A stretch of DNA of 64,000 bases from Candidatus Stammera capleta (GTDB lineage: Bacteria > Pseudomonadota > Gammaproteobacteria > Enterobacterales > Enterobacteriaceae): NCBI GenBank assembly GCA_015139955.1, contig CP043991.1:56368-120367 (forward strand), read 5' to 3'. The notes beneath the pieces are model-generated. The model worked only from the letters and a program-made list of their open reading frames with translations. It ran no database searches and had not been told where the DNA came from. Within the stretch, counting starts at the first letter, position 1. The number at the start of each line of letters is the position of its first letter. Shown here in pieces: positions 1,884 to 57,027 of this stretch. Position numbers and translations under genes: made by a program.

Positions 1884-4800
1884 TAGTTTTTTTTAAAAAA
1901 ATAATTTAACTTTTTAATTAAAGAATAATTTGGTTTAGTATAAAAAATACCTGTAAAAGAATTATAATTATTATCTAATAATAAACCACGTAAAAATATA
2001 TAATAAATTCCACCAAAATTTATATTATAATCATATGTTTTAAGATTTAATTTTAAATAATTATGTAAAGCTAACGTATACAATTGATATTGTATATCAT
2101 AACGATGTAAACTAATAACTTTATATAAATCTTTATTAATATAATCAATATATTTATTACCTAATCAATTCGATTTATAATCTATTATAAAATATTTATT
2201 ATTATAAATACATAATAAATCAATTACTCCATTAAAAAAACCTGTAAAATTATTTTTATTTAATTGAATTTTTTGACTTAATTTAGAAATATAATCATAT
2301 TTTATAATAATTTTATTAAATTTTTTAAAATTAAATACATTTGTTATAGGTAAAAAAAAATCAAATTCTTTATAAAAAAAAGAAATATTTTTATTATTTA
2401 TACTAATATTATCAAATAATTTAACATTTAAAAAATTAAATAATATTCTTTTAATATTAAAAAAAAAAGTTTTAGATATATTAAATTTTAACATATTGTA
2501 TAAAATAATATTATTATCTAATAAATTTAAAAAATTAATTTTTTCTAAAATTTTATGAAAAAAATTACCGATATTTTTCCCTTTCGGTAAAAGAGAATTA
2601 TTATTTTTCTCAAATTCAAAATTATGAATATTTATTAAATTATTTGCATATAATTTATTATTAATAATATTAGAAAAATTTAAAACATATTTTTTATTTA
2701 TTGATGTAGAAAAAAAATCATTTTCTTTATTAATTTTTTTTTTAAAAAATATTTTTTTTTTTTTAAAGAAATCAATTAAATTTAAAAAATAAAAATTTAT
2801 ATATTTAAATTTAAAATAATTATTTATAATTTTTTTAATTTTACTAAAATTAAATTCTTTACCATAACCTAATAATCTACCTAAATATGTATAACAAAAT
2901 TTTTTATTTTTAATATTTAGTATATCATATACAAAAATATTACATTGATATATACATCTGGTAATAGCTACATAAAATAAACGCATTTCTTCAGAATCTA
3001 TTTCTTCTTTATAAAAAAAATAATTTTTTTTAAATTTATATAAATCTATATTAACCTTAAAATTTTTTCTATTATGAAAAATAAAATAATTATTATTTAT
3101 TTGAAAATTTAAAAAAAAAGGTAATCAAACAATATTATATTGTAAACCTTTAGATTTATGTATAGTAGAAATTTTTATACCATTTTCATAATTTAAAGAT
3201 CTAATATAATAATCTTTTTTATGTATATCAATATTTAAAATTTTATCATTTAATCAATAAATTAATAAAGATTCATTTTTTAAACTAAAAGATTTTTTTT
3301 CTAATATTTCTCCTATATGTAATATATTATTATAAAATAATTGGTTATCAATTTTATATATTTTTTTATTTTTTTTATCATTTAAAATATATTTAATCAT
3401 TACTAAAATACCATCTTTTTTTCAAATATTTTGATAAAAATAAAAAATATTAATTCATTTATTTAAAAAAATTTTATTAATAAGAATATTTTTCATTAAA
3501 TTAAAATTAAAATTAAAAAAAGAAGTAGATAAAGCACTAATTAATAGTGTAATAGAATCTGGATTAATAATAGATTTTAGTAAAAAAAATATTTCTTTTG
3601 CTTCATTAGTATGAAATACATTACTTTTTTCTAAAGAAGTATCAGTAGGTAAATTATATTTTTGTAAAGCATTAAAAATTAATTTAACTTCATGATTAGT
3701 ATGAACTAATATTGCTATATCTGAAGGAATTATTAATCTTTTAGATTTACCATTAAATAAAAACCTATTTTTATTATTTAATAAATAACATAATTTTATA
3801 GCACATATTTCGGCTAAATTATATTTTCATTTTTTTTTATCTAAATTTTTTAAAATAAAAAAAATTATACAAAAATCTTTCTTACTATTTTTTAATAAAA
3901 AAAAATTATTTTGTAAAGAATAATTAACATTTAAATATTTTATTTCTTTTAGTAAAAAAGGATTATTAATTCTACTAAATAAATAATTAATACTTTTAAC
4001 AAAATTTATAGAAGAACGTCAATTTATATTTAAAGTATATAAAAAATCTATATTTTTTTTAGATTTTATATAATTAAATATATTAGCACCTCTAAATGTA
4101 TATATAGACTGTTTAGGATCACCAATTAATATTAATTTAGTATTTAATTTAGTAAAATTATTTATGTATATTTTATAAAATATATTATATTGTAAAAAAT
4201 CAGTATCTTGAAATTCATCAATTAATAATATTGGAAAATTTTTTCTAATTATATTAATTAATATATGTTGTTTGTCTTTTATAAAATTAATATTTAAATT
4301 AGTAATTAAATCATTAAAACTAATATATGAATTTTTTTTTTTAATTTTAATAAGCATTTTTTTAATATATTTTATACAAAATATAATAATAAAATTACGA
4401 AAATCTTGTATTCTTAAAAAAATATTATCTACATATTTAAATAAATTAAAAAATTTTAAAATATATATATTATTATGTTTTTTAACTAAATATTTAAAAC
4501 TAAATTTTTTAAAACAATAAGGTAAAGTAAAATTTATAGTTTTTTCTTTACATCAAGACATAATTTTAGAAAATCATTTTTTTATATTTAAAAAATTAAA
4601 TATTTTTTGATTTATTAAAAAATTATAAATATTTTTATAATTCAATAATCAATAATTTTTAAATTTATTTATAAAAAATATAATTTTATTATAACAATCT
4701 TCTATAGAAGAATATTGATTTTTTATATTAAAAGGAAAATATAAAAAATTTAACATAGGTAATAAAAAATCAAATAGTTTTATAGGACTAATTCATATAT

Positions 4801-8541: not shown

Positions 8542-9015
8542 TTATAAAAAAAAATAATAAATAAATAAAATACATAAACAAAAATTAATTTTACTAATAT
8601 GAAAAAAAAATCATAAAGGACATCTTACTTTTATATTTAAAGGTCAAAAAAAATATATTCCTCTATAAGTAAACATATCAGCTATAATATGACTTAAATA
8701 TCCTAATAACATTCCTATAATTATATCTAAATTTAAATTTAAATAAATAAAATTTAAATAAAATAGAATAAAAAATAAAATTATTAAAAATAATAAACTA
8801 TGTGTAATTTTTCTATGAGTAAAAAAATTTCAATATATTAAAAAAAAAAAATTTCAATTTATAAAAGATTTGGGGTGATCTATATCTGGTAATAAACAAG
8901 TTATTAATCCAGCAAAAATTATATGTCATAAATCTATATAATGTAAAATACTAAAAAATTTTATAAAAAAAAATATAAAATAAATTGAAAATAACAAATG
9001 ATTTCTAAAATTCAC
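8542..9015 (-). CDS. ydjM: YdjM-like membrane-bound metal-dependent hydrolase (DUF457)
   Basis: Absent from the ORF track because TGA splits it. Hand translation gives VNFRNHLLFS...LLPDIDHPKSF...THRKITHSLL...GYLSHIIADMFT...FWPL, colinear with E. coli YdjM. A GTG start is assumed. TAA at 8542-8544. Confidence 0.7.
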
Positions 9016-9111
9016 TATATACCTACTAAATTAAATTTTTTAAAAATAATAAAAATAAAAAAAATAATAATTATATAATAATAATTATAAAATAATTACT
9101 TGGAACTTAAA

Positions 9112-10356
9112 ATGATAAAAACAAAATGTAAAAAAAAATACACATGTAAACATTCAAATAAAACAAATATAAATAATAAATGTGATCACAGAATTATAAA
9201 TAAACAAATTAATTTATATCATACAAATAAAGAAACTCCTGGAATAATATTTTGACATAACAAAGGATTTATTTTATTAAAAAATATTAAAAAATTATTA
9301 AGAAAAAAAAATGATCAATATAATTATATTGAAGTTCAAAGCGCATATTTAATAAATAAAAATATGTGAAAAAATAGTGGACATTGAAAAAATTATAGTA
9401 GTTTTATTTTTAGCACAATATCTGAAAAAAAAAAATTATGTATTAAACCTATGAATTGTTTAGGACATATAGATATATATAGACAAAAAAAAATATCATA
9501 TAAAAATTTACCTATAAGAATATCAGAATTTGGAATATGTCATAGAAATGAATACTCAGGATCATTGTATGGACTAATGAGAACAAGATCATTTACACAA
9601 GATGATGCACATATATTTTGTACAAAAAAACAAATTAAAAAAGAAATTACTAAATGTATAGAATTAATACAAGAAATATATAATATATTTAAATTAAAAG
9701 ATATTAGTATTTTTATATCTACAAAACCTAAAAAATATTTAGGTAATAAAAAAACATGAAAAAAATCAGAAAATCAACTTATAAATATTTTAAAAGAAAA
9801 AAACATTAATTTTAAAATCCAAAAAGGAGAAGGTGCTTTTTATGGCCCAAAAATAGAATTTGTTTTAAAAGATTCTTATAATAAAAAATGACAATGCGGT
9901 ACAATACAATTAGATTTTTATTTGTCAAAAAAATTAAACATAAATTTTTTAAATAAAAAAAATATACAACAAAATCCTATAATAATTCATAGAGCTGTAT
10001 TAGGTTCATTGGAAAGATTTATAGGTATATTAATAGAAAAACATAATGGTTGATTACCTACATGGTTATCTCCAATACAAGTTGTAATAATTAATATTTC
10101 TGAAAAACATAAAAAATATTGTAAATATATATTAAAATTATTAAAAAAAAATAATATTAGATCTATAACAGATTTTAGAAATAAAAAAATAAACTCTAAA
10201 ATTAAAAAACATACTTTACAAAAAATACCTTACATGATAGTATGCGGCGATAAAGAAATACTTTCTAAAACTGTTAATGTAAGAAAATTTAATAATTTTT
10301 CTATAATGAAAATAGAAAAATTAATAAAAAAAATTAAAAAAAAAAATAAATATTAA
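9112..10356 (+). CDS. thrS: Threonyl-tRNA synthetase, catalytic and anticodon-binding domains only
   Basis: ATG at 9112 is in frame with track ORF 9451-9759. Motifs seen: [63 protein letters not shown] and [16 protein letters not shown] at 10354-10356. The gene is 414 codons. An in-frame TAA at 9088-9090 forbids a longer N-terminus. Confidence 0.93.
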
Positions 10357-10370
10357 AGGAGAAAAAAATT
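10356..10370 (+). promoter_or_regulatory. Shine-Dalgarno AAGGAG followed by the non-canonical ATT initiation codon of infC
   Basis: AAGGAG at 10356-10361, 6 nt upstream of ATT at 10368-10370. The frame from this ATT gives an IF3-like N-terminus. There is no ATG, GTG or TTG in frame upstream of the conserved region. Confidence 0.7.
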
Positions 10371-11475: not shown

Positions 11476-12444
11476 ATGTTTAATTCTAAAAAAATAATTA
11501 ATAAATTTAATAAAGAAATTCAAGAAGTCAAAAATAATAATCATGTCGTTAAATTATATAAAAAATATTTAAGTAAAAAAGGTAAAATTACTAACTTAAT
11601 AAAATTAATCAAAAATATTCCTAAAAAATTAAAACCTAAATTTGGAAAAAAAATTAATAATATAAAAAATTATATTAAAAAAAACATTAATATATTAAAA
11701 AAAAAATATCAATATTCAAAAAAAAATATTTATATAGATTTATCATTACCAGGAAGATGTTTTCTTACAAAAGGAAATATGCATCCTATTACTAAAATAA
11801 TTAGTAAAATAGAAAATTTTTTCTATAAATTAGGATTTAAAAATATTCAAGGTAATGAAATAGAAGATATATATCATAATTTTGATGCATTAAATATTAA
11901 TAAATATCATCCTTCTAGATCTAAAAAAGATACTTTTTGAATAAATAGAAAAAAATTATTACGTACACAAACATCATGTATGCAAATAAGATGTTTAAAA
12001 TATATAAAACCACCTGTAAAAATTATTACTTCCGGATGTGTATTTAGAAAAGATTATGATCATACTCATACTCCTATGTTTCATCAATTAGAATGTTTTG
12101 TAATTGACAAAAATATTAATCTTACTAATCTAAAATATATAATTAATGAATTTATTAATTATTTTTTTAGAAAAAAAATACAAAAAAAATTTCTTCCAGC
12201 ATATTTCCCATTTACTGAACCTTCTTTAGAAATTTATATTAAATTTAAAAATAAAAAATGATTAGAAATTCTTGGCTGTGGATTGATACATCCTAAAATA
12301 TTAAAAAATTCTAAAATAAATCCTAAAGAATATTCAGGATTTGCTTTAGGTATGGGTATCGAAAGATTATTAATGATTAAATATAATATTTCCGATATAA
12401 GATTATTATATAATAATAACATAGAATTTTTAGATCAATTTTAA
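11476..12444 (+). CDS. pheS: Phenylalanyl-tRNA synthetase alpha subunit
   Basis: Fragments 11476-11940 and 11980-12261 plus a tail share one frame. FRKDYDHTHTPMFHQLE is present, and the hand-translated tail reads WLEILGCGLIHPKIL...GFALGMGIERLLM. TAA at 12442-12444. Confidence 0.92.
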
Positions 12445-55971: not shown

Positions 55972-57027
55972 CTAGATCTTAAAAAGATTATTTTTTTTAA
56001 TTAAAGAAAAATAATCAATAACTTTAATTTCGAGTTCTAAAAAAATATTAAATTTCTCAAATATCTTTTTTCTAACATATAAAATTAAAGAATAAATATG
56101 TTTTGGTAATGCATCACCTAAATTAACAATAATTAATGGTTGTTTTTGATACACTTTTGCTCATCCAATAGTATAACCTTTTAAACCACATATATCAATT
56201 AATAAAGCTGCAGGAATTTTTTTTTTACCTTTTATTATATTAATATCAATATAATCTAAAGAAGGAAAATATATATTTTTTATATATTGGTAATATAAAG
56301 TATTTACTATAGGATTTTTAAATATACTTCCAACATTACCTAACACATTTGGATTGGGTATTTTACTATTTCTAATTTTTAAAATTCTAGTATATATATC
56401 TTCTGCTGTAATACTAGTATCTGAAGGATCGAAAAAATTTAATAAATCTCTATATAAAAAACAAGGTTTTCATAATTTTTTAATTACTAAACCTACCTTA
56501 ATTATTATAAAACGATTATGAAGGAAATTTTTAAAAATACTATTTCTATAAGAAAAATATAAATCCTTTTTTTTTAAAAAAAATATTCTACCTGTATAAC
56601 AATCCAATATTTTTGCATAACTAAAAAAATCTTTAATTTCTAAACCATAAGCTCCAATATTATTAACAACAGCAGCACCTACAGAACCAGGTATAAAAGA
56701 TAAATTTTCTAAACCATATATACCATTATAAAGAGTAAAATTAACTAAATCTGTTCATAATTCTCCTGAATATATATCTAAAAATCAATAATTATTATTT
56801 TGTCTAATTTTAATACCTTTAATTCTATTAATTATAATAGTACCATAAAAATCATTTAAAAATAATATATTACTACCACAACCTAAAATTAAAATATATT
56901 CTTTTTTTTTAAAACTATTAAAAGATATTCTTTTTAAATCTCTAAAATTATCTAATATATATAAAATATTAAATTTTACATCAAGATTAAAAGTATTAAA
57001 TGTTTTTAAAGAATTATAACTACTCAT
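55972..57027 (-). CDS. murB: UDP-N-acetylenolpyruvoylglucosamine reductase
   Basis: Fragments 55972-56154, 56161-56346 and 56785-57027 share one frame. LILGCGSNILF, IIINRIKGI, GLENLSFIPGSVGAAVVNNIGAYG, YRNSIFK and GSIFKNP are present. TAG at 55972-55974. Confidence 0.9.

Follow-up and report, generated by a model that had tools for sequence, protein, structure and literature searches.

The thrS locus and its surroundings

How does a cell cope with serine on its tRNA-Thr when its only threonyl-tRNA synthetase (ThrRS) lacks the N-terminal TGS (N1) and editing (N2) domains, and by what route were those domains lost? These questions are raised by thrS of Candidatus Stammera capleta, which lies at 9112 to 10356 on the forward strand of the window, meaning the whole 64,000-nucleotide stretch of DNA that was analyzed (positions 56,368 to 120,367 of contig CP043991.1, assembly GCA_015139955.1). 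The gene consists of 414 codons and a TAA stop, and its frame is open only when TGA is read as Trp (table 4), with six such codons in frame. UGA=Trp has been reported for Stammera, the tortoise-beetle symbiont (PMC8629427). The DHR motif was found at D25-H26-R27, with CHRNE starting at residue 143 and a ten-residue stretch at residue 161.

Upstream of the ATG, the thrS frame contained three stops at 9076 to 9084 and a TAA at 9088 to 9090. These lie in an A/T-rich spacer of 96 bp (9016 to 9111) that separates thrS from a divergent ydjM-like gene (8542 to 9015, reverse strand). No remnant of the N-terminal domains was detected in this spacer, the 3′ part of which aligned with the equivalent spacer of a relative carrying a longer thrS (G339). 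The order recC-ydjM-thrS-infC was observed in all 25 Stammera genomes with mapped neighbors, three of them without ydjM. The G+C content was about 14 to 16% around thrS, 11 to 13% in parts of the window, and 18% for the main contig. The preliminary description of this DNA had reported the 414-codon frame, the position of the DHR motif, the blocking TAA, and the 96-bp spacer to ydjM, and all were correct on re-reading.

Domain content and catalytic residues

A Pfam search of the 414-residue protein returned only tRNA-synt_2b (PF00587, residues 104 to 311, 164 bits) and HGTP_anticodon (PF03129, residues 323 to 411, 69.1 bits). The class II catalytic domain as a whole occupied residues 25 to 311 (9184 to 10044), followed by the anticodon-binding domain at 10078 to 10344. 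The NCBIfam equivalog profile for thrS, TIGR00418, scored 488.6 bits (cut-off 383.65), covering only positions 155 to 564 of its 565, and NF011500 matched solely through the shared anticodon-binding domain. When the protein was compared with the PDB using phmmer, residues 22 to 410 aligned with residues 240 to 630 of E. coli ThrRS (1qf6, E~1e-133), a similarity to solved ThrRS cores that is sufficient to establish the fold. The TGS profile (PF02824) was absent from the protein, and the N2 domain, with its HxxxH and CxxxH motifs (H73, H77, C182, and H186 in E. coli), was not found in the window ThrRS either. The Pfam result, the start of the TIGR00418 match at position 155, and the start of the E. 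coli alignment at residue 240 all supported the earlier statement that N1 and N2 are missing, and the domain (HMM) architecture of the table-4 translation proposed there as a check showed nothing beyond the class II core and the anticodon-binding domain.

The retained part closely resembled its E. coli counterpart, with no insertion or deletion across residues 22 to 388 and a constant numbering offset of +218. By this alignment, the zinc ligands C116 (9457 to 9459), H167 (9610 to 9612), and H293 (9988 to 9990) correspond to E. coli C334, H385, and H511, and all were conserved. Similarly, R145 of motif 2, Q163, D165, Y244, K247, Q266, and R302 were present as the equivalents of R363, Q381, D383, Y462, K465, Q484, and R520. 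The earlier claim of an intact zinc site and intact class II motifs was thus correct. For the core, a dN/dS of 0.16 was obtained against the sister species (G019) and of 0.27 to 0.33 against relatives with the long form, and the core is therefore under purifying selection.

Search for a replacement or a missing half

The assembly amounts to 310,648 bp in two contigs (304,737 and 5,911 bp) and is approximately 94% complete by marker genes. Searched over the whole genome, TIGR00418 identified one ThrRS gene; the remaining matches were weak and included ProRS (E of at least 2.6e-11). With the TGS profile, nothing in the genome matched at E≤10. A whole-genome search with tRNA_SAD (PF07973), the fold signature common to the ThrRS and AlaRS editing domains, matched AlaRS alone, so that no AlaX gene was found in the genome; the AlaRS itself retains the HxxxH and CxxxH motifs. 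No free-standing gene of the YbaK/ProX family (tRNA_edit, PF04073) was detected in the genome, where the sole match lay inside ProRS. Likewise, the archaeal ThrRS-ed profile (PF08915) had no genome match at E≤10, and the DTD profile (PF02580) had none.

A profile HMM was also built from the N-terminal residues 1 to 242 of eleven full-length ThrRS sequences of the same order and was run with filters off against all 4,078 six-frame open reading frames of at least 25 residues, translated with code 4. The only match for a split N-terminal fragment among these 4,078 frames was AlaRS (E=0.019), and a tblastn search of the genome for such a fragment gave nothing below E=0.3. The preliminary description had left room for an N-terminal fragment encoded elsewhere, which would have overturned its reading; none was found by the profile searches, the N-terminal HMM, or tblastn. 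Its suggestion of a trans-acting editing factor was not borne out, since neither the five profiles (PF02824, PF07973, PF04073, PF02580, and PF08915) nor the N-terminal HMM nor tblastn revealed one in the genome. A novel, unrecognizable deacylase or a factor supplied by the host would escape profile searches, and with two contigs and a genome that is approximately 94% complete, a small unassembled piece could strictly speaking still exist.

The genome contains one tRNA-Thr gene, with anticodon UGU, pairs G1-C72 and C2-G71, A73, and a C-G pair at 3:70. Given the intact residues, the purifying selection on the core (dN/dS 0.16), the single copy of the gene, and the presence of this tRNA-Thr(UGU), the 414-residue ThrRS is predicted to charge tRNA-Thr.

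Loss of the editing residues across the genus Stammera

Genus-wide comparison provided an indication of when editing may have been lost. A thrS gene was present in all 45 species-level Stammera genomes. Short forms of 398 to 414 residues, beginning at about E. coli residue 240, were found in 34 genomes and long forms in the other 11, with ten intact at 581 to 631 residues and one (G018) split into two frames. The residues equivalent to E. coli H73, H77, C182, and H186, for which editing roles have been described (PMC4041444), were replaced or deleted in the alignment of all 11 long forms. The longest of these (G328, 631 residues) has a recognizable N2 scaffold and matched the thrS profile from position 1, with the editing residues missing; it has IIRTACSFIIGNAIKNLWP at the place of I(I/L)RHSCAHLLGHAIKQLWP (E. 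coli numbering) in full-length ThrRS sequences of the same order. The ten other long forms have N-extensions rich in Lys, Ile, and Asn, and no Pfam domain was found in the N-extension of the three long forms tested. Two other symbionts of the same order, with genomes of ~300 kb, encode ThrRS proteins of 637 to 644 residues in which N1 and N2 are recognizable and the editing residues read H73K, H77F, C182S, and H186L.

The absence of the editing residues from every long form indicates that loss of the editing site preceded loss of the domain. The deletion in the window therefore appears to have removed a domain that was already dead, and the loss of Ser-tRNA-Thr editing in this lineage would be older than the short gene. 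The comparison with thrS of related symbionts that had been suggested earlier upheld the initial observation in the frequency of the short form (34/45), whereas the state of the long forms (11/11) changes its interpretation, since the deletion was not the event that abolished editing.

Eight long-form pairs were used to compare selection on the two parts of the gene. For the N-extension, they gave dN/dS values of 0.45 to 0.92 with up to 40 gap columns, compared with 0.12 to 0.32 and 0 to 6 gap columns for the core, making the extension two to seven times less constrained. An open N-extension of 200 codons at about 12 to 13% G+C could not, by estimate rather than computation, persist by chance; translation of the essential core through the extension is probably what keeps the frame open. 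As the constraint is weak but non-zero (dN/dS 0.45 to 0.9), a residual role other than editing, for example in holding the tRNA acceptor arm, was considered for the N-extension of the 11 long forms and was judged improbable. If such a role exists, it would have been dispensed with or compensated in the window lineage, which would then amount to a natural experiment, and comparison of long and short sister enzymes could reveal a scaffold function of the N-terminus beyond editing, together with the tolerated Thr-to-Ser error. In other ThrRSs, deleting the editing domain lowers the efficiency of tRNA charging (PMC4267643), and deletion of the N-extension may have carried a cost here as well.

An internal deletion that kept the ancestral start

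The extent of the deletion was mapped against G339, which has a thrS of 588 codons. The two sequences share a 69-nt block with 93% identity, located at 9059 to 9127 of the window, which comprises 53 nt of 5′ untranslated region with a GGA just 5′ of the ATG, the ATG itself, and codons 1 to 5 (MIKTK), and ends 16 nt into the coding sequence. A second block of 119 nt with 87% identity starts at 9155, 29 nt 5′ of the DHR codons. Its first part (9155 to 9183) provides the last ~10 codons before DHR and is homologous to the C-terminal end, or linker, of the N-extension. The blocks are separated by 549 nt in G339 and by 27 nt in the window (9128 to 9154), which makes a net in-frame loss of 522 nt (174 codons). 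The breakpoints are approximate owing to the A/T-only sequence, with room for one step or several. The first codons, the scar, and the linker remnant together encode a 24-residue leader rich in Lys and Asn, for which a dN/dS of 0.78 was obtained between the window species (G000) and G019.

The in-frame translation across the start in G339, NNYLELE-MIKIKY, was compared with the region upstream of and including the start in the window. In a comparison with a more distant long form (G006), the register anchored at the ATG ranked first among 2,956 offsets. The matching 5′ block and upstream translation indicate that the ATG at 9112 is the ancestral start and that the loss was internal to the gene. 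The preliminary description had stated that ~220 N-terminal residues were simply absent; their absence was upheld, whereas a gene that begins at the core was not, as the ancestral start and five codons have been kept. When the more distant long forms G006 and G021 were used, global and affine-gap DNA alignments produced scattered, arbitrary blocks in the A/T-only sequence, and these were discarded in favor of the G339 map.

Repeated loss by two routes

A maximum-likelihood tree of the 45 species was obtained by a quick search in IQ-TREE from the ThrRS core without its N-terminal columns and a 520-residue RecC fragment, using the eleven full-length ThrRS relatives as the outgroup; as a tree of two genes it is weak at the basal nodes. 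The window species and G019 were sisters (SH-aLRT 99), sharing 90% identity over thrS and recC as well as the short form, and the long-form G339 was sister to this pair (support 97). All three belong to an 11-member clade (support 100) in which the nine members besides the window species and G019 have long forms of 581 to 601 residues. The loss in the window lineage is therefore separate from those of the other short Stammera genes and recent, having taken place within an otherwise long-form clade and with the ancestral start kept.

By parsimony, at least four changes between long and short forms were needed, and a count that allowed only losses on the resolved tree gave seven. Stammera would thus have shed the dead domain on at least four occasions, and the exact number is uncertain because of the quick two-gene tree and its weak basal nodes. 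Two losses are well supported as separate events, namely those of the window lineage and of G024, which was sister to the long-form G328 (support 100). G024 retains 126 codons of the former N-terminus, followed by many stops and then by a new start placed directly ahead of the core. N-terminal remnants containing stops were also found in G003, G329, and G340, and a spacer of 473 nt was found in G015. A short thrS has thus been reached by two routes. In one, an in-frame excision leaves the old start in place; in the other, the start is relocated and the sequence upstream decays. The leader of the window gene was the longest among the short forms, with 42 codons from the ATG to PGxxFW compared with 22 to 35 outside its own lineage.

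Alternative explanations

Fidelity might be kept without an editing domain, through efficient hydrolysis of Ser-AMP before transfer as in yeast mitochondrial ThrRS, through tighter discrimination between Thr and Ser, or through discrimination by EF-Tu or the ribosome, so that mistranslation is not raised. Such compensation is unlikely. In its favor, the catalytic core shows good conservation and purifying selection, but pre-transfer editing alone fails to prevent the formation of Ser-tRNA-Thr by the yeast mitochondrial, E. coli, and yeast cytoplasmic enzymes (PMC4267643). In addition, the substrate-contacting residues checked here were all as in E. coli, with no compensating change visible.

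Editing in trans, whether by a separate N-terminal fragment, a free-standing deacylase (AlaX, ProXp-ST/YbaK-like, ThrRS-ed, or DTD-like), or a host protein, deserves very little weight. Other organisms have split pairs of ThrRS-cat and ThrRS-ed as well as free-standing editing proteins. YbaK, ProX, and AlaX are named as free-standing editing proteins (PMC4014445), and the completeness of the genome is ~94% rather than 100%. Against this, there was no TGS, DTD, or tRNA-Thr_ED match, tRNA_SAD pointed only to AlaRS and tRNA_edit only to ProRS, and no open reading frame was found with the N-terminal profile; trans editing by the known families thus appears already largely refuted. AlaRS editing relies on the G3:U70 pair of tRNA-Ala, which argues against AlaRS as a substitute here, where tRNA-Thr has C3-G70. 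Stammera lives outside host cells, making import of a host protein unlikely, and with the catalytic residues already gone from all 11 long forms there would have been no activity left to relocate. That the short gene is an artefact (a deletion in the assembly or a wrongly called start) or is dying (a pseudogene with host-supplied function) is hardly credible. The region is nearly pure A/T with long homopolymers and is error-prone, and G018 does have a split thrS. An assembly artefact is nonetheless very unlikely, because the independently assembled sister species G019 shares the short form and 34 of the 45 Stammera genomes are short; the 522-nt deletion is also exactly in frame, 414 codons stay open at about 14 to 16% G+C, the dN/dS of the core is low, and the catalytic residues are intact.

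The reading preferred here, held with considerable confidence, is that the 414-residue enzyme is the single functional ThrRS of the cell and would charge tRNA-Thr without editing Ser-tRNA-Thr, following an early loss of the editing site. As no trans-editing factor was found, tolerated Thr-to-Ser error becomes the favored outcome, and low-level misincorporation of Ser at Thr codons probably predated the deletion. On this reading, the editing active site would have been lost by substitution early in the genus or before it, after which the dead N-terminal region would have drifted to Lys/Ile/Asn-rich filler, kept open only through translation of the essential core. The window lineage and one sister species would then have undergone the net 174-codon in-frame deletion that spared the promoter region, the start, and five codons, while other Stammera lineages would have reached a short thrS independently, some by way of a moved start and a stop-ridden remnant. 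Like the engineered E. coli core, the present enzyme would use its zinc site for threonine activation and would charge the single tRNA-Thr(UGU). Ser-tRNA-Thr would not be hydrolyzed, with the N2 domain gone and no replacement in the genome. Mis-activated serine would meet one of two fates, disposal as Ser-AMP at the synthetic site or tolerated incorporation at Thr codons. Thr accounts for 3.6% of residues in the long open reading frames of the genome. In E. coli, the ThrRS editing mutation C182A impairs growth only slightly, and replacement of Thr by Ser is regarded as well tolerated (PMC10057733).

Comparison with known editing-deficient synthetases

The closest match in domain boundaries was the engineered truncated E. 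coli ThrRS (residues 242 to 642; PDB 1EVK, 1EVL, 1FYF, 1KOG, and later inhibitor complexes), whose boundaries are nearly identical to those of the window ThrRS. Residues 25 to 410 aligned with chain residues 2 to 389 of 1evk (E=1.5e-133), and the two proteins agree in their zinc site and class II motifs. In work by Dock-Bregeon from 2000, the engineered enzyme reportedly charges tRNA-Thr but mischarges serine. Unlike that core, the window ThrRS is natural, is the only ThrRS of its cell, is fixed in its lineage, and carries the 24-residue Lys/Asn-rich leader derived from the old gene start and the linker.

The closest natural precedent is the yeast mitochondrial ThrRS (MST1; PDB 3UGQ), which matched the window ThrRS at E=1.4e-75. 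It lacks the whole editing domain, charges tRNA, and hydrolyzes Ser-AMP before transfer, and it still makes Ser-tRNA-Thr in vitro, where it is error-prone with pre-transfer editing as its only safeguard (PMC4267643). MST1 represents a separate loss in a distant lineage, whereas the window ThrRS belongs to the E. coli type (E=1e-133) and underwent its loss recently. In the crenarchaeal split system of ThrRS-cat and ThrRS-ed, the catalytic protein likewise has no editing domain, but a separate ThrRS-ed gene performs the editing, and no such gene was found here with PF08915.

Editing domains are reported to be degenerate or deleted in ThrRS, LeuRS, and PheRS of Mycoplasma (Li 2011) and in most host-restricted bacteria (Melnikov 2018), as summarized in PMC7373986, PMC10057733, PMC4014445, and PMC11020763. 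Stammera resembles these cases, as they are outlined there, in having a tiny genome, an obligate host, a lost editing site, and no trans factor (PMC7373986, PMC10057733, PMC4014445). The genome of the window belongs to this editing-deficient class by its host restriction and reduction (310,648 bp, with 18% G+C in the main contig) and by a deleted editing domain with no substitute. It is distinguished from the cases summarized in the reviews by the presence within Stammera of inactivated, decayed, and deleted states side by side. In the literature searched, in which Melnikov 2018 was represented through reviews, no paper combining Stammera with synthetase editing was found.

The feature is real, was correctly observed, and is an expected one, namely relaxed translation quality control in the shrinking genome of a beetle gut symbiont. 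The mechanism is not new, as loss of aminoacyl-tRNA synthetase proofreading in host-restricted bacteria is already documented (Melnikov 2018, as cited in PMC7373986 and PMC10057733). What is specific to the window is a recent, lineage-specific, and exactly in-frame excision that kept the ancestral start and removed a part that was probably already non-functional. A single genus displays each stage, from an inactive scaffold (G328) through translated filler (10 species) and stop-ridden remnants (e.g., G024) to clean excision (the window), and the presence of all stages side by side establishes an order in which function was lost first, then sequence, and then length. The window gene also illustrates that a dead 5′ domain can disappear from an essential gene while the signals for its start are preserved. 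The long- and short-form sister species are a convenient pair in which to measure the contribution of the ThrRS N-terminus beyond editing and natural Thr-to-Ser mistranslation.

Other synthetases of the genome were of near-normal length, with ValRS at 865 residues, LeuRS at 821, IleRS at 938, PheRS-beta at 734, ProRS at 569, and AlaRS at about 880. LeuRS (72 bits) and AlaRS (50 bits) gave good matches for their editing regions, and weaker ones were obtained for the B3_4 domain of PheT (33 bits, partial) and for tRNA_edit in ProRS (22.7 bits, below the cut-off). A general physical loss of editing modules was considered and rejected, as by length and domain matches ThrRS alone had lost its module.

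Genetic code within Stammera

Tryptophan codons were counted in thrS and the RecC fragment of the 45 Stammera species compared. Five species contained no TGA and 17 to 19 TGG codons (L023 in G003, L024 in G002, L026 in G020, L072 in G341, and L075 in G344), and their basal placement was read from the tree built on the ThrRS core and RecC. A mixed usage was found in G018, with 5 TGA and 11 TGG codons, while the remaining 39 species encoded Trp mostly by TGA. The genetic code therefore does not seem to be uniform across the genus, and since TGA is absent from the five basal species and mostly used in the 39 others, the reassignment of UGA to Trp may have originated within Stammera. Short thrS, encoding ThrRS without the N-terminal extension, was present in both the TGA-free and the TGA-using group.

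The thrS of G018, a basal species with the long form that retains the N-terminal extension (L025), was broken at about 2254 to 4039 into frames of 416 and 188 aa, which overlap close to the GEGAFYG motif. The split is due to a frameshift in the gene or, alternatively, to a sequencing error at a homopolymer.

Other states of ThrRS in the order

Another Enterobacterales genus was represented by two genomes, each roughly 300 kb in size and with 16 to 17% G+C, in which ThrRS was full length (L052 and L053, 637 to 644 aa), with recognizable N1 and N2 domains; no TGA recoding was seen in either thrS. The editing residues were replaced (H73K, H77F, C182S, and H186L, E. coli numbering), and from these substitutions the two proteins are predicted to be a stage in which the editing site is dead with the domain still present. 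A free-living member of the order with a 5.3-Mb genome (G038) carried, beside a normal full-length thrS, a second ThrRS copy of 398 aa (C68:21171-22340) that matched only profile positions 171 to 559; judged from the sequence, this copy is an editing-less paralogue.

Eight genomes of the order yielded no thrS match at an E value of ≤1e-40, namely, seven of about 200 kb from a single genus (G099, G121, G141, G160, G177, G193, and G208) and G037, of about 300 kb. A targeted thrS search of G037, G099, and G121 likewise returned nothing at an E value of ≤1e-20. The ThrRS gene may be altogether missing from these eight tiny genomes.

Other synthetases and the infC start

In the genome of the window, pheS (window positions 11476 to 12444) lies upstream of pheT (genome coordinates 68801 to 71017). 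The B3_4 editing domain of PheRS-beta was detected only in part with Pfam (33 bits, profile positions 9 to 63 of 174), and the tRNA_edit insertion of ProRS (proS, genome C1:143471-145192) scored 22.7 bits, below the Pfam cutoff of 25.5 bits. The editing sites of both enzymes may likewise be degenerate.

Downstream of thrS, the start codon of infC appears to be ATT (window positions 10368 to 10370, bases confirmed), located 12 nt past the thrS stop and preceded by AAGGAG.
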